Of a stretch of DNA of 53,626 bases, positions 10,334-46,437 are shown piece by piece (position 1 is the stretch's first letter; each line of letters starts with the position of its first letter). The position numbers were made by a program, and so were the translations under genes. This DNA comes from Candidatus Omnitrophota bacterium. Its GTDB lineage: Bacteria; Omnitrophota; Gorgyraeia; Aquiviventales; Aquiviventaceae. A model generated the notes under the pieces. It ran no database searches. It was not told where the DNA came from and worked only from the letters and a program-made list of their open reading frames with translations. The stretch is from NCBI GenBank assembly GCA_016192545.1, contig JACPTX010000007.1:1-53626 (forward strand), given 5' to 3'.

Positions 10334-11362
10334 CTACGGTTTCCGGAGTCCGGCCGGGCCGTCGGCCTGGAAAAACCCCTGGCCCACCCGGACCGCCAGC
10401 TCAGGCACCACCGGCTCCATCGGCGCGTTGGTGTTGTGGATGCAGTTGTGGCACAGCGTCCCCTCCAGCGCGTTCTCCAGGTGGCGCCGGCGCATCTCCT
10501 GGAAGATCTTCGCCTCCCAGGCGTCTTTCAGCGTCGTGCGGTTCAGGTCCACCAAACTCAAATAATTCTGGTAGTCGCTGCAGCACATCCGCAGGTAGCC
10601 CTCCGCCGAGATGTGGCACTGCATGAACGGCAGCGGGCAGGGCGCGGTAATCCCCGCTTCAGCCAGGCCGAGCATCTGGCCGTTCTGGTTGTTCGCCTCG
10701 TAGAAGATCACCTCATCCACGACCGATCCCAGGAGCCGCGGCAATTGCTCCCGGCTCCCCGCGTTGCTGCCGATGGCATGCTCGACCAGCACGCAGGAGA
10801 CGGCCAGGTACAGGTCCGTCCCGAGCCGGTCGCGGTAGGCGCGGCAGAACTTCACGCGCTCGATGACCTTGTCGAAGTCGTCGCGTCCGTGGATCCGCCG
10901 GTACGTCTCCCGGTCGCCGGCGTTGATCGAGAACTTCAGGCTGTCCAGGCCGTGGTCCATGCAGGCCCTGAGGCGCGCCTCGGTCGCCAGCGACGCGTTG
11001 GTGCTGATAAAGACATACCCATAGCCCAGCATCTTGGCCAGCTTGATGCCGCGCTCCAGGTCCGGCGAGGTGAACGGCTCGGCCCCGGCGTAGAAGCCCA
11101 CCTCGCGCCCACCCAGCTCGTAGGCCTCCTGCAGCAGCCGCTCCAGCAGCGCAAAGTCCAGCAGCTTGCCGGCGCGGGTCATCTTCGCGTAGGCGCAGAA
11201 GACGCAGCGGTGGTTGCAGACGTTGCTCAGCTCCACCAGGACGGTCTTCGGGAAGGCCGGCGTCACCGAGGCGGGCTTGTAGTCATAGAACGCCTCGATG
11301 CGGCGCCGGATCTTCTCTCGTTCCCGCTTGGAGACCGTCGGCACGCCCTCGAGTTGGTTCAC
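10334..11362 (-). CDS. Radical SAM protein with SPASM/twitch-type C-terminal domain
   Basis: CNHRCVFC (CxxxCxxC) and C-terminal CPLPF...CCSD...CHNC. Start reassigned to GTG 11362 (GTGA overlap). Confidence 0.9.
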   Translation of the reverse strand: MNQLEGVPTVSKREREKIRRRIEAFYDYKPASVTPAFPKTVLVELSNVCNHRCVFCAYAKMTRAGKLLDFALLERLLQEAYELGGREVGFYAGAEPFTSPDLERGIKLAKMLGYGYVFISTNASLATEARLRACMDHGLDSLKFSINAGDRETYRRIHGRDDFDKVIERVKFCRAYRDRLGTDLYLAVSCVLVEHAIGSNAGSREQLPRLLGSVVDEVIFYEANNQNGQMLGLAEAGITAPCPLPFMQCHISAEGYLRMCCSDYQNYLSLVDLNRTTLKDAWEAKIFQEMRRRHLENALEGTLCHNCIHNTNAPMEPVVPELAVRVGQGFFQADGPAGLRKP

Positions 11363-12399
11363 GGCTTCACCCCCACGAGCCACCACTCCCCCACGCCGCA
11401 GCACCCCCGCCCAACGACTTGGCAGGTCGGCAGGTACTGGTCCAGCGCAGTCTGGTCGCCAGCCGCCAGCAGCGCCTCAATGCGCTGCGATTCTTCCATC
11501 CACCGGGCGTGTCGCCACGACCTGTCGGCTTCAGGCGAGTCGCTGCGATAGACCTCGGCATCCTGCTCCCGCTGCACGGTCCATGCCGAGGCCTGGCGGA
11601 TCAGATGGGCTCGATAGGGCGACAGCAGCCAAGTGATGGGTTGATGATTCGCCTGATCTGCGAGGGGAGGCTCCAGCGGCGGCCAGCTCCGGTAGAGCGA
11701 CAGCTCCGCCTCCACCATCCAGTCAAACAGATCCGCCAACGCGATCGGCTGATGGCGGGGCGTGAGAAAATTATCGGCGACGATCTGCAGCTCTGTCCGA
11801 CTTCCAAACCGCCTCGCCCGATCCAGGTATTCCGGAAACCACTTCCGCATCAGCGCCACGGCTCGTTCGGCCTCGCCCCCTGAGAACCGTGAAATCAGCC
11901 GTCTCAGCAGCACACGCTGCTCGGCCCCCGGCAACGGCGCGACGCAGATGACCACAAGCCCCCCCGACTTCACGCTGGCCGCGAGCTTGCGAAAGGCACC
12001 ACGCTGGTCCTCCACATGATCCAGCACTCCGTCTGCGACCGCGATGTCGTACGATTGCCTCGGCTGCCACTGGCTGATTGACGTACATTCAACCGTCGCG
12101 TGAAGCCGTCTCCGCGCAAACAGTGTCTGGAGCCGTTCAAGCGCAAGACGGTTGAAGTCGACCCCAGTGACCTGCGCTCCCCACGCAGCATAGACCAGCG
12201 TATGCTCGCCGGTCCCGCACCCAAGATCCAACACCTGGGCGCCACGGAACAGTTGCAGGGGGAGATGCAGGCGATCCCGGAAGATGCGAAGGCGCCGCTC
12301 CACCAGGGCCTCCCACGCCTCCGGAGTCTCCACAGGCATCCGGGAGGGGTTGACGGTCCGATAGTGTTGCAAGACCTGCGCTTCAATCGGGCGACTCAT
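11359..12399 (-). CDS. Class I SAM-dependent methyltransferase
   Basis: VLDLGCGTGE, GVDF, YDIAVADGVLDH and KSGG motifs. Strong SD (AAGGAGGT) before ATG 12399. Confidence 0.85.
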   Translation of the reverse strand: MSRPIEAQVLQHYRTVNPSRMPVETPEAWEALVERRLRIFRDRLHLPLQLFRGAQVLDLGCGTGEHTLVYAAWGAQVTGVDFNRLALERLQTLFARRRLHATVECTSISQWQPRQSYDIAVADGVLDHVEDQRGAFRKLAASVKSGGLVVICVAPLPGAEQRVLLRRLISRFSGGEAERAVALMRKWFPEYLDRARRFGSRTELQIVADNFLTPRHQPIALADLFDWMVEAELSLYRSWPPLEPPLADQANHQPITWLLSPYRAHLIRQASAWTVQREQDAEVYRSDSPEADRSWRHARWMEESQRIEALLAAGDQTALDQYLPTCQVVGRGCCGVGEWWLVGVKP

Positions 12400-45065: not shown

Positions 45066-45805
45066 TCCATCTGCACCACCGGGGGGGCCGCGAGGTCGTG
45101 CGCCGGGCCCCACCCGAACCGCCGCCTCGCCTCGTGCGCCACGCGGGGCCATGGCATCTGCAGCTCGGCGCGCAGCGGCCGGGGGACCATGAGGCCGCGT
45201 TCGGCCAGGTGCCGGGCCGCCGCCGCCCCATGCGGCCCGAGCGCGGCGGTCAGCGCCTCGCGCATGCCCGGATCGCCGACGGCGACCGGTTCCCCGCGGG
45301 CGTCGGTGAGCATCGCGTCATGCGCCGCGTCCACGATCACCCATCTGCCGTCGAGGCGGACGAACGGCACGACCAGCCGGCCGCCGTCCGGGAACATGAA
45401 GACGCGCCAGAAGGCGGGGACGCCGGCATAGGCGCTCAGCGTGGCGAACACGTCGGCCCGCTGGTCCGCCAGCCCGTGCCCGCGGATCATGATGTGCAGG
45501 ATGTGGTCGTCAATGACCGGCCAGCCCTCCGGCGTCTGTCGGACGTGGTCATGGACCCAGGCCAGGACGGCCGCCGCCCGCTCACGGTCGGTCCGCAGCC
45601 CCTGCGTGATGTCACGCGCCGCCAGGCGGTACTGCTGGTCGCGGTGCAGGAAGGCGAGGAGCTTCGCGTAGAGCGGCAGCGTATGCGTGGAGACCTGAAA
45701 ATTGACGCCCTGTTTGGTCGCGGCCGGCAGCTGCAACACGCCGTAGACCGCCGTCGGCAAGACCAGCACGGCAAGACCGATCACCAGCAGGCGCCTCCGG
45801 CTCAT
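45062..45805 (-). CDS. Membrane-anchored transglutaminase-like domain protein (catalytic Cys/His apparently absent)
   Basis: N-terminal TM helix; AVLAWVHDHV, RGHGLADQRADVF..L...GVPA and LDGRWVIVDA follow the TGase-core pattern. Confidence 0.65.
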   Translation of the reverse strand: MSRRRLLVIGLAVLVLPTAVYGVLQLPAATKQGVNFQVSTHTLPLYAKLLAFLHRDQQYRLAARDITQGLRTDRERAAAVLAWVHDHVRQTPEGWPVIDDHILHIMIRGHGLADQRADVFATLSAYAGVPAFWRVFMFPDGGRLVVPFVRLDGRWVIVDAAHDAMLTDARGEPVAVGDPGMREALTAALGPHGAAAARHLAERGLMVPRPLRAELQMPWPRVAHEARRRFGWGPAHDLAAPPVVQME

Positions 45806-46437
45806 CAGGTCACCGCCGCCTCCGGAAGCGCGGGGGCGATCTCCGCGCCGCGCTGCTCGATGATGATGAGCCGCTCCTCGGCGATGCCCAGCGCCTGCAG
45901 GCGCCGCCGGAGCTCATGGTGGCCGTGGTTGAGCGAGCCGATGATCCCGCAGTCGAACGCGCACCCGGGCAGCTCCTCGACGCGCATCACCCGGACGCCC
46001 AGGAAGCTCTGTCCGGCCGCCTGGTCGTCCACCACGCCGGCCAGGTTCAACCCCATCCCCTTGAGCGTGAGGTAGGCGATCTCCGTGATCTCGCCGACGC
46101 CGAAGAGCACGACGTCCTTGCCGCCGGCCTGCGCGATCCGGCTGAGGCGCTCCTGCAGGACGCGGCGGACGCCGCGGTAGAGGAAGAGCGAGTACTCGAG
46201 GTAGGCATAGGTGAGGCGCGTCTTCTCGGTGATCCCCTTGGGCGTGATGAGGTACTGCAGGCGGTTTTTTTGGATATTGACGACCTTCACGTAGCCCTTG
46301 TTGACGAAGCGGCGGATCATCAGATTCGTCAAGCCGAGGGCCACCCCCAGCTTTTTGGCCAGGTGGCGCTGCGTGAAGGAGGGGTTGACAGACAGCTCCT
46401 CGAGCGCTTGCAGCTCCCGGTACGACGCCTCTTTCAC
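45805..46437 (-). CDS. Winged-helix (MarR/EPS-associated type) transcriptional regulator with C-terminal Rossmann-like domain
   Basis: TQRHLAKKLGVALGLTNLMIRRFVNKGYVK...YLITPKGITEK; C-domain VLFGVGE...GVVDD...FLG. GTG start with SD GGAGG 6 nt upstream. Confidence 0.9.
   Translation of the reverse strand: MKEASYRELQALEELSVNPSFTQRHLAKKLGVALGLTNLMIRRFVNKGYVKVVNIQKNRLQYLITPKGITEKTRLTYAYLEYSLFLYRGVRRVLQERLSRIAQAGGKDVVLFGVGEITEIAYLTLKGMGLNLAGVVDDQAAGQSFLGVRVMRVEELPGCAFDCGIIGSLNHGHHELRRRLQALGIAEERLIIIEQRGAEIAPALPEAAVT

Follow-up and report, generated by a model that had tools for sequence, protein, structure and literature searches.

A tightly packed 34-gene locus of an Omnitrophota bacterium with a probable role in making a pseudaminic-type nonulosonic-acid glycan

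Which glycan is made by a bacterium that packs 34 sugar-related genes end to end on one strand, and do these genes form a single operon for a single, heavily decorated sugar? The question is raised by contig JACPTX010000007.1 of a Candidatus Omnitrophota bacterium, and the window analysed here is the whole of this 53,626-bp contig (C58), part of a metagenome-assembled genome (MAG) of 1.35 Mb in 67 contigs (86% complete, 0.95% contaminated; the source genome is ~1.5 Mb in size, and relatives in the family or class are 0.7-2.2 Mb). The locus at 10334-46437 is a real, well-bounded and unusually rich version of a known locus type, and on balance it probably acts as a single sigma-70-promoted, self-repressed unit that makes and exports a glycan with a pseudaminic-type nonulosonic acid (NulO) activated by cytidine monophosphate (CMP). 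Its most novel elements are a remodelled NeuB protein, here called NeuB*, a cassette that brings together a double amidotransferase set, an oxidoreductase/aminotransferase/acetyltransferase trio and a carbamoyltransferase, and the apparent Rex-like control of the promoter.

Gene content and packing can be read directly from the open reading frames (ORFs). Thirty-four minus-strand ORFs occupy the locus, as a preliminary description of this DNA had counted, all with family or homologue support and none with an internal stop, and every long ORF with family support in the window lies on the minus strand. Each of the unit's 33 junctions has a start codon at -41 to +12 nt relative to the preceding stop, so that the gaps of at most ~12 bp first described are exact, but the statement that almost all junctions are of the ATGA type was overstated: overlaps of -4 or -1 (ATGA/GTGA/TGATG) make up 17 of the 33, and the remaining 16 overlap slightly or are separated by no more than 12 nt. 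The functions first named were all found again, including four SGNH proteins, four methyltransferases (one borderline), Wzx and two KpsS-like proteins; additional to them are a regulator, a transglutaminase-like protein, an RmlD-like reductase, a CE4 deacetylase, a second GNAT acetyltransferase and a GT4 glycosyltransferase. Family membership was judged by curated NCBIfam cut-offs plus Pfam thresholds. The features of the unit, from its 5' end, are listed with their scores and, where given, the cut-off; L026 is a related locus and G041 a genome of the same class.

46467..46495 (-): promoter-like TTGACA-17-TATGTT, in the sole 91-bp spacer, at the 5' end of the unit
46454..46470: perfect palindrome TGTTCAT-N3-ATGAACA across part of the -10 box, putative operator for h01
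45805..46437 (-): h01, regulator of winged-helix type whose C-terminal domain is Rossmann-like; GTG start, GGGGAGG ribosome-binding site
45062..45805 (-): h02, transglutaminase-like, with an N-terminal hydrophobic segment (Transglut_core 23.8 against 23)
44004..45065 (-): h03, PseG-like uridine diphosphate (UDP)-sugar hydrolase (TIGR03590 113.5, below 153.55); 47% identical orthologue in L026
43079..44017 (-): h04, RmlD-like NAD(P)H 4-ketoreductase (RmlD_sub_bind 188.8; rmlD 185.5, below 224)
41419..43110 (-): h05, O-carbamoyltransferase of NodU/CmcH/TobZ type (Carbam_trans_N 122.9, Carbam_trans_C 190.1)
40376..41419 (-): h06, NeuB*, 347 aa (NeuB 169.4, plus SAF; below the NeuB and PseI cut-offs)
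39642..40379 (-): h07, PseF-like CMP-ulosonate cytidylyltransferase, the 'NeuA' of the preliminary description (TIGR03584 180.1, below 205.7)
38629..39645 (-): h08, Gfo/Idh/MocA oxidoreductase
37949..38629 (-): h09, GNAT N-acetyltransferase, weakly PseH-like (Acetyltransf_3 91.3; PseH TIGR03585 47.2, below 93.1)
36609..37952 (-): h10, class-III aminotransferase resembling glutamate-1-semialdehyde (GSA) aminomutase (Aminotran_3 162.7; PRK06209 393.7, below 486)
35500..36612 (-): h11, pseudaminic acid synthase PseI (TIGR03586 454.6, above 340.25); SDH and EKH histidines intact
34350..35540 (-): h12, WbuX-type N-acetyl sugar amidotransferase 1 (TIGR03573 347.2, above 203.2); 77% identical orthologue in L026
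32887..34353 (-): h13, HisH-HisF fusion (glutaminase plus WbuZ-like) of set 1 (HisH 220.3, above 105.4; WbuZ 291.6, below 299.7)
32229..32879 (-): h14, HisH-type glutaminase of set 2 (TIGR01855 233.6, above 105.4)
31072..32226 (-): h15, protein of SGNH fold, hydrophobic near the N terminus; local insertion
29948..31075 (-): h16, SGNH-like and paralogous to h15 (24% identical, E 3e-11); local insertion
29193..29945 (-): h17, HisF/WbuZ-like protein of set 2 (WbuZ 255.9, below 299.7); 74% identical orthologue in L026
28169..29203 (-): h18, SGNH protein (Lipase_GDSL_2 40.9, above 32.9), 60% identical to h20; local insertion
27257..28159 (-): h19, PhyH-type Fe(II)/2-oxoglutarate dioxygenase (PhyH 43.2, above 22); HTD...H motif
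26191..27276 (-): h20, SGNH protein (Lipase_GDSL_2 54.4); local insertion
24859..26178 (-): h21, WbuX-type amidotransferase 2 (TIGR03573 348.9, above 203.2); 77% identical orthologue in L026
23721..24881 (-): h22, methyltransferase-like, borderline (Methyltransf_23 26.9 against 27); 49% identical orthologue in G041
22193..23734 (-): h23, Wzx-type flippase (Polysacc_synt, PF01943, 47.1, above 28.2); 11 hydrophobic segments
21261..22196 (-): h24, class-I S-adenosylmethionine (SAM) methyltransferase (Methyltransf_23 99.2)
19559..21268 (-): h25, FkbH-type enzyme for loading glyceryl onto acyl carrier protein (ACP) (TIGR01686 316.1, above 146.65); local insertion
19299..19562 (-): h26, ACP (PP-binding 32.2, above 20.8); DSL motif
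18488..19306 (-): h27, CE4 polysaccharide (N-)deacetylase (Polysacc_deac_1 81.2)
17437..18495 (-): h28, two-domain GNAT (Acetyltransf_9; protein-atlas score 0.97)
16643..17440 (-): h29, Methyltransf_24 (TylF-class) methyltransferase (66.3 bits)
15429..16646 (-): h30, GT4 glycosyltransferase (Glycos_transf_1 157.2)
13922..15439 (-): h31, PF05159 (KpsS/KpsC-like) protein, candidate NulO transferase (Capsule_synth 46.8, above 20)
12396..13925 (-): h32, second PF05159 transferase (49.7, above 20), 33% identical to h31
11359..12399 (-): h33, class-I SAM methyltransferase (Methyltransf_23 66.5); local
10334..11362 (-): h34, radical SAM/SPASM protein (Radical_SAM 77.9, SPASM 33.4), CxxxCxxC at residue 49; local
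10289..10317 (-): second promoter-like site, TGTACA-17-TATAAT, in the spacer 3' of the unit

The 5' boundary is marked by the 91-bp spacer at 46438-46528, in which the promoter-like site, running from 46495 to 46467, matches the consensus at 10 of 12 positions; the scan gave two sites where 0.5 were expected. The -10 box and palindrome are followed by the ribosome-binding site and then by the start codon of h01. Upstream of the regulator orthologues in three related loci, L026, L030 (=L103) and L031, the -35 box, the spacing, the -10 box and the palindrome are invariant, and the flanking bases are not conserved. The palindrome occurs only here in the 1.35-Mb assembly, even with up to two substitutions allowed, and the proposal that the spacer is a mobile hairpin element was rejected, because its elements are kept in other organisms and the palindrome is single-copy in the genome. 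The promoter itself, which the preliminary description had placed at this end, is thus well supported. Upstream of the more distant regulator homologues of L043 and L064 (30-37% identical) lie other palindromes, GCGTTCA-N5-TGAACGC and GTTCAAT-N2-TTGAACG (twice), which suggests that the operators form a family co-varying with the regulators.

The regulator is twice as long as the 'EPS-associated MarR' model, to which it scores 68.8 (cut-off 88), and gives 29.3 bits to HTH_24; PF22674 is listed for it in precomputed Pfam and is absent from our own scan. It has 655 homologues at E<=1e-10. An AlphaFold (AF2) model built from 43 homologues, with a mean confidence (pLDDT) of 85.7, shows a winged helix, a long helix and a Rossmann-like domain, and its top full-length Foldseek matches are Rex-family repressors (E 9e-7, TM score 0.36, 15-19% identity). 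The likeness to Rex proteins such as RSP (3WGI) and Rex of T. aquaticus extends to the combination of the two domains in ~210 aa and to a palindrome over the promoter; it is limited by the low identity and TM score, by a different domain packing in the h01 model and by the sequence families, which say MarR/HTH_24. From the model, h01 may be an autoregulated repressor with a nucleotide-type ligand: a sigma-70-type promoter would drive the unit, and h01, a winged-helix repressor with a Rex-like nucleotide-binding domain, would bind the operator that overlaps its -10 box.

How far does this promoter reach? The 3' end of the unit adjoins a spacer of 51-66 bp with the second promoter-like site (10317-10289), for which no counterpart was seen upstream of the G041 orthologue in the one locus compared, and the two longest non-coding spacers near the unit are the two boundaries originally drawn. 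Within the unit, promoter-like and terminator-like sites are no more frequent than in shuffled sequence, the weak promoter-like sites at 45513 and 11799 among them. The 34 genes are most likely one transcription unit. A tentative alternative is that there is no single operon here, only a longer read-through array or a series of internal promoters, with the promoter at 46.5 kb boosting or regulating a subset of genes. It draws on the two weak internal sites, on the lack of a convincing intrinsic terminator before 46529 or after 10334, and on equally tight same-strand genes for 7 kb upstream, 19 kb more on contig C14 and 10 kb downstream. Positions 53492-53626 of the window are identical over 135 bases to the start of C14 (L111 1-135), a 19.5-kb contig on which all genes are again minus-strand glycan genes, and the co-directional glycan array is thus no shorter than 72,972 bp (5.4% of the assembly). 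The idea of a self-contained 36-kb operon is not supported: the locus forms one part of this array, whose same-strand tight packing runs across the whole contig on both sides of the unit, and is a mosaic of a cassette and local insertions. What speaks for a distinct unit inside the array is that the promoter and operator (46495-46454) are kept across loci and unique in the genome, that internal sites are no commoner than in shuffles, and that the longest nearby spacers are its ends.

For the pathway, only PseI, both WbuX proteins, both HisH-type glutaminases and the FkbH domain score above their NCBIfam cut-offs. A pathway to pseudaminic acid (Pse) by curated standards is not borne out, the PseF-, PseG- and PseH-like enzymes being below cut-off and the PseB- and PseC-like enzymes lying outside the unit. 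None of the latter two is encoded within it; on C14 the PseB-like protein reaches 285.5 (cut-off 407.75) and the PseC-like protein 259.1 (423.5), and the DegT protein d01 of the window scores 341 for LegC (420) and 280 for PseC (423.5). PseF is nevertheless the best-matching family for h07. A related locus with another arrangement ('type B', L064) has PseB, PseC, PseG, PseI and WbuX that all pass their cut-offs; its NeuB* gene follows PseC and precedes the cytidylyltransferase, and a formyltransferase replaces PseH. Since most enzymes here fall below the cut-offs and this relative is canonical, the pathway is pseudaminic in type and its enzymes here are divergent, and the broader description of a nonulosonic-acid glycan locus with many tailoring enzymes is supported.

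We infer the chemical steps, the substrates and the assignment of groups to sugars from these families. The 5' half would be a laterally shared cassette making one or more CMP-activated pseudaminic-type NulOs: a UDP-amino sugar would be supplied by the upstream-encoded PseB/PseC-like enzymes, acylated by a GNAT, released by the PseG-like hydrolase, condensed with phosphoenolpyruvate by PseI and activated by the PseF-like enzyme. The two glutamine-dependent WbuX/HisH/HisF sets would turn acetamido into acetamidino groups, and the Gfo oxidoreductase, class-III aminotransferase and GNAT would together replace a hydroxyl by an extra acetamido group. The oxidoreductase matches 1,5-anhydrofructose reductase in the PDB, with YjhC and NanOx weaker (~1e-11), and the aminotransferase matches GSA aminomutase (GSAM) and the C-6' aminotransferase 7lm0. 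A carbamoyl group would come from the TobZ/NovN-like h05, whose nearest PDB entries are the O-carbamoyltransferases NovN (9s2t), GdmN and TobZ (E 5e-61 to 2e-53), in line with the natural-product affinity first attributed to it; with a NodU equivalog score of 115 against 1000, it is not NodU itself. NeuB*, with its rebuilt active site, would catalyze an unspecified step or form a second ulosonic acid. In the 3' half, the GT4 enzyme and the two KpsS1-like transferases would extend a lipid-linked oligosaccharide, and Wzx would flip the product. Both of these candidate NulO transferases exceed the PF05159 threshold in the same unit as PseI, and h31 matches the KpsC structure 6mgd at E 6e-7.

Several observations weigh against this reading of a single unit making a pseudaminic-type glycan. 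The PseF-, PseG- and PseH-like, both WbuZ-like and the PseB/PseC-like proteins are all below curated cut-offs; the unit holds two synthases and only one cytidylyltransferase; neither a Wzy nor a chain-length regulator could be recognised in the window, and the sole Wzy_C-family gene found lies on another contig (C55); the array upstream of the 91-bp spacer is as tightly packed as the unit itself; and the canonical metal-ligand histidines are both replaced in NeuB*.

NeuB* is the most unusual component of the unit. It keeps the NeuB fold and the SAF domain, and relative to N. meningitidis NeuB (1XUU) it carries K for His215 and R for His236, which we take to be the metal ligands. R236 is present in 40 of 40 family members, position 215 is variable with His not among its four commonest residues, and an invariant PGHHH (H246-248, 40/40) stands in place of the P-G-P-D-I loop. 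The four other NeuB paralogues of the genome retain both histidines. Among the best 120 homologues, which come from several phyla, identity is 61-72% and nearly all are exactly 347 aa long. Our literature search found no paper describing the subfamily, and in a large phylogenetic study of NulO synthases the word 'metal' does not occur. NeuB* may be a metal-independent synthase of a second ulosonate or a synthase of a 7-hydroxy trideoxy acid like that of F. nucleatum 25586, or it may not be a synthase at all and catalyse a different reaction. As a separate observation, the 1.35-Mb assembly contains six NeuB-family genes, two in the window, three on contig C40 and one on C63. A tblastn search with window proteins showed that the C40 genes belong to a second large NulO locus (~16.6-47.5 kb, one strand), which also contains a cytidylyltransferase, three short-chain dehydrogenases/reductases (SDR), an RmlD-like protein, a DegT, a radical SAM protein and a GT4.

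The cassette also occurs elsewhere. G041 (G136) is a genome of the same class as the source, with a ribosomal protein L2 that is 64% identical, and it shares with the window, in order, the regulator, PseG-like, RmlD-like, carbamoyltransferase, NeuB*, PseF-like, Gfo, GNAT, aminotransferase, PseI, WbuX1, HisH-HisF fusion, HisH, HisF and WbuX2 genes, 47-77% identical at the protein level. A cassette of ~15 genes, from the regulator to the second WbuX, is thus common, in order, to the window, G041 and metagenome contigs. Further along, G041 has a methyltransferase, GT4, methyltransferase-like protein, PhyH, Wzx, both KpsS-like proteins, DegT, GT2, methyltransferase, PMT_2 and GT1-DUF218, with orthologues of h31 and h32 (46% each) and of h19 (50%; the PhyH, further downstream). 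Several cassette proteins (WbuX, HisF, PseF, PseI, DegT and GT2) are up to 77% identical between the two genomes, above the L2 value, and among 400 other sampled genomes of the phylum only one yielded a NeuB* orthologue, as did none of 40 close relatives; both findings suggest lateral spread of the cassette. In addition, NeuB* matches (P0008/P0005) and regulator matches (P0413/P0431) fall on contigs of 487,612 and 697,180 bp, the latter from Candidatus Omnitrophica, and further Omnitrophota MAGs probably carry the cassette.

A wider comparison used 81 NeuB* loci, 80 from a metagenome scan with the NeuB* alignment and one from a genome. Where at least 1 kb of downstream sequence was available (49 loci), the gene after NeuB* encodes a PseF-like cytidylyltransferase in 45, and the order found in the window ('type A') recurs in nine. 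The 21 loci with at least 6 kb downstream include PseI in 15, WbuX in 16, and Gfo and the aminotransferase in 10 each, and directly upstream of NeuB* stands a carbamoyltransferase in nine and a DegT in 17 of the 42 loci with at least 2 kb on that side. The block from carbamoyltransferase to WbuX that the preliminary description had proposed as a search query exists, in the same order, in G041. By tblastn, no match was found in the 81 loci or the G041 stretches examined for FkbH, ACP, the CE4 deacetylase, the second GNAT, Methyltransf_24, h33, radical SAM or the four SGNH proteins; the transglutaminase-like h02 has orthologues only in L042 and L093, and none in those G041 stretches. It follows from the shared cassette and the locus-only genes that the operon first described is a conserved cassette plus local insertions. 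FkbH homologues do occur in 63 of 400 other phylum genomes (E<=1e-30), and FkbH-like domains are also found inside enormous open frames, 10,000 to 58,000 codons long, of several phylum genomes (G365, G274, G097 and G329 among them).

The presence of two synthases and of two transferases of NulO type points to more than a single ulosonic acid or linkage. It is accordingly conceivable, if doubtful, that the unit makes two CMP-ulosonic acids, PseI leading to pseudaminic acid and NeuB* to a second sugar, with one KpsS-like transferase for each; NeuB* might, for example, form a 7-hydroxy 3,5,9-trideoxy 'fusaminic-type' acid from a 4-keto sugar reduced by the RmlD-like enzyme of the cassette, which the trio would then aminate. 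The usual pairing of NeuB* with a cytidylyltransferase fits this idea, as do four loci (L060, L074, L075 and L089) in which NeuB* is accompanied by Gfo and the aminotransferase, with PseI absent within 10 kb and a cytidylyltransferase next to NeuB* (upstream in L074). Oxidases of the Gfo family that act on a sialic-acid hydroxyl exist (YjhC and NanOx, the weak matches of h08). Moreover, F. nucleatum 25586 makes 6-deoxy-L-AltNAc and a 5-acetimidoylamino-3,5,9-trideoxy-NulO, according to the available part of the published account, in which no biosynthetic genes were seen, and one may hypothesize that such trideoxy chemistry would fit the PseB product, a 4-ketoreductase, a hydrolase, a NeuB-type synthase and an amidotransferase, types that are all in the cassette. 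The single cytidylyltransferase and the loss of His215 and His236 argue the other way, and so does the PseB-PseC-NeuB*-PseF-PseG-formyltransferase-PseI-WbuX operon of L064, which has no extra reductase beside NeuB*. The same locus weakens the notion that NeuB* is always accompanied by such a reductase, as none lies between PseC and NeuB*.

The lineage-specific inserts would diversify the glycan. The CE4 deacetylase, FkbH-ACP and two-domain GNAT could swap an N-acetyl for an N-glyceroyl group, which methyltransferases may then methylate, with C. jejuni 11168 as a precedent; the FkbH-ACP pair first described was confirmed, FkbH passing its cut-off and the adjoining ACP having its DSL motif. Further inserts would provide a PhyH hydroxylase, a radical SAM enzyme and membrane-anchored SGNH acyl-transferases or esterases acting after export. 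The motifs of the ACP, radical SAM and PhyH proteins are intact. The SGNH blocks of h15 were identified in an alignment of 51 family members (GGS125, G159, DGxND193, D355xxH358; 6254 homologues at E<=0.001), and h16 has a protein-atlas score of 0.97 to Lipase_GDSL clusters. Five proteins of SGNH or transglutaminase-like type, h15, h16, h18 and h02 among them, begin with a hydrophobic stretch and probably work on the assembled glycan outside the cytoplasm. The genome (86% complete) yielded no flagellin gene, and the target of the glycan is therefore probably not a flagellum.

The preliminary description had gone further and let one nonulosonic acid bear all the decorations (carbamoyl, two amidino, glyceroyl, methyls and hydroxyl) in the manner of a natural product. 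All tailoring genes do lie in one tightly coupled unit, and pseudaminic acids with acetamidino plus glyceroyl (Tannerella) or acetamidino plus dimethylglyceroyl (C. jejuni 11168) are already described in the available parts of the literature, so that some of the expected decorations have known counterparts and the novelty of the combination is not borne out. A single sugar carrying everything is unlikely all the same: a 5,7-diamino NulO offers two N and two or three O positions to more than 10 tailoring enzymes, the hydrophobic N-termini just mentioned suggest extracytoplasmic action on a polymer, the CE4 deacetylase and methyltransferases are generic glycan modifiers, and the modules are separable, as shown by the unmatched FkbH-ACP, SGNH and radical SAM genes. 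That the locus is an assembly chimera or a decaying remnant in a metagenome bin is very improbable despite the 67 contigs of the MAG, as Logan contigs from four groundwater runs cover 17001-37000 independently of the MAG assembly and break only at 26935-27015 and 28904-28984, which are the two 60%-identical SGNH paralogues, at even depth (36-43 in X1, 15-24 in X2), pieces at least 99% identical come from a second study, the translations have no internal stops, the G+C content is a homogeneous 65-73% throughout the contig, and the gene order is confirmed in G041. Groundwater metagenomes contain the DNA of the locus. Its assignment to the phylum is in line with ribosomal protein L2 of the genome: among the 120 best matches, all nine that bear a name are Candidatus Omnitrophica/Omnitrophota (74-83% identical). 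Within the above range, 24001-32000 has the lowest G+C of the contig (0.651-0.668, compared with 0.68-0.73 elsewhere) and coincides with WbuX2 and the inserted SGNH, PhyH, h15 and h16 genes.

The favoured single unit is flanked in the window by ten same-strand genes downstream and by five same-strand genes plus a 95-aa membrane ORF upstream, and the array goes on into C14 as follows.

5307..10318 (-): Arn-like side module of a DegT aminotransferase, ArnC-like GT2, cupin, methyltransferase and PMT_2 GT-C
3..5307 (-): TylF methyltransferase, GT4, SDR epimerase/dehydratase, WecA-like fusion and truncated ORF
46529..53608 (-): 291-aa protein of unknown family, 95-aa ORF, AsnB-type amidotransferase, SGNH, methyltransferase and GT1-DUF218
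C14, first part: two GT4, WecE-type DegT (passes its cut-off), GNAT, GT2, PMT_2-like protein and GT2-methyltransferase fusion
C14, second part: NTP transferase, LegB-like dehydratase, FG-GAP+GT87 fusion, FAD amine-oxidase-like protein, PseC-like, PseB-like and GNAT

The side module looks like an Arn-type system, in which an amino sugar would be loaded on undecaprenyl phosphate and then transferred outside the cytoplasm, and it is collinear in G041 (L109 3588-8133; DegT 69%, GT2 72%, methyltransferase 55%, PMT_2 43%). A frameshift was suspected in its PMT_2 gene (5307-7094) from an ATG in another frame over the upstream stop and was rejected, because the G041 orthologue aligns over 559 of 595 residues with a similar spacer. 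The WecA-like initiating enzyme, outside the unit at 509-2332 (-), combines in one protein a WecA/MraY-type transferase and the membrane/CoA_binding_3 part, the N-terminal half, of a WbaP/WcaJ-type phosphoglycosyltransferase, and the ORF at 3-512 (-), truncated at the contig end, contains three hydrophobic segments and matches no family. On the other side, a 286-bp 'gap' before AsnB is not non-coding, being filled by the 95-aa ORF at 52449-52735 (-), which has two hydrophobic segments, joins the upstream gene by an ATGA overlap and ends 2 nt before the AsnB start (ATG at 52446, MCGI...).

Sialic-acid-like sugars influence how phages, predators and hosts recognise bacteria. The Omnitrophota are ultra-small bacteria believed to live attached to other cells, and with at least 5.4% of the assembly in one glycan array and six NeuB-family genes, surface sugar chemistry looks central to this lifestyle. 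The core cassette, including the rebuilt synthase, recurs in other uncultured bacteria and is so far unstudied; it provides a defined gene context for a NeuB variant that is itself widespread and unstudied, and its conserved promoter and operator are a rare opening for studying how genes are regulated in an uncultured phylum. Testable candidates are supplied for amidine formation at two positions, an N-glyceroyl swap, carbamoylation and late amination, for a group of sugars whose decorating enzymes are little known as far as the available part of the literature tells. A bolder proposal, which we regard as speculative and rather unlikely, is that the cassette is a route to an undescribed class of nonulosonic acid, in which a NeuB with a replaced metal site, post-condensation amination, bis-amidine formation and O-carbamoylation would be combined with a Rex-like nucleotide or nucleotide-sugar switch of the whole unit. 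Our literature search found no paper linking Omnitrophota with the words nonulosonic or pseudaminic, and none linking nonulosonic acids with glutamate-1-semialdehyde.

Among known systems, the CMP-Pse pathway of C. jejuni and H. pylori (TIGR03584-03590) is close to the core, with a bona fide PseI and PseG-, PseF- and PseH-like enzymes in the unit and PseB/C-like enzymes on C14; here, five of the six steps are below curated cut-offs, and the remodelled NeuB paralogue, the oxidoreductase/aminotransferase/GNAT trio, the carbamoyltransferase and the double amidotransferase set are extra. The carbamoyltransferase has the same two-domain architecture as NovN, GdmN, TobZ and NodU and differs in lying inside a NulO cassette; the literature search found no paper linking a nonulosonic acid with a carbamoyltransferase and no described carbamoylated NulO. 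Acetamidino groups are formed by the amidotransferases WbuX/WbuY/WbuZ, LfnA, PseA and archaeal AglXYZ. With WbuX/Y/Z (TIGR03573, TIGR03572, NF038364) the locus shares a WbuX that passes twice and HisH- and HisF-like partners, and it differs in having two complete tandem sets, one with HisH and HisF fused, in which both HisF-like proteins are just under the WbuZ cut-off. In the C. jejuni flagellum, the glycan reaches flagellin via Maf-type enzymes; here, in contrast, no such target gene was found, and Wzx and KpsS1-like transferases are present.

The available part of the account of C. jejuni NCTC 11168 reports dimethylglyceroyl-Pse and its acetamidino form, and the island resembles the present locus in Pse synthesis, acetamidino formation (PseA), the FkbH-domain gene cj1302 and an O-methylated glyceroyl; the same part describes it without a carbamoyltransferase, NeuB*, SGNH set or radical SAM enzyme. 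In Acinetobacter, PF05159 proteins beside NulO modules are NulO transferases and KpsS1 has been characterised biochemically as GT118, so far as the published text was available. The A. baumannii retaining pseudaminyltransferase KpsS1 (GT118) and Gtr59 are of the same PF05159 family as h31 and h32, which likewise lie beside a NulO synthesis module; the latter are ~500 aa long, two paralogues with weak similarity to the solved KpsC, and are likened to KpsS1 by family and location. Finally, the O-glycan of T. forsythia, a Wzx-type, lipid-linked general O-glycan, ends in Pse5Am7Gra with N-acetimidoyl and N-glyceroyl groups, and the available part of its description states that the enzymes for both groups are not known and that PseA/LegA homologues are absent. 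For these two modifications, the present locus supplies explicit candidates, the WbuX sets for the one and FkbH-ACP-CE4-GNAT for the other.

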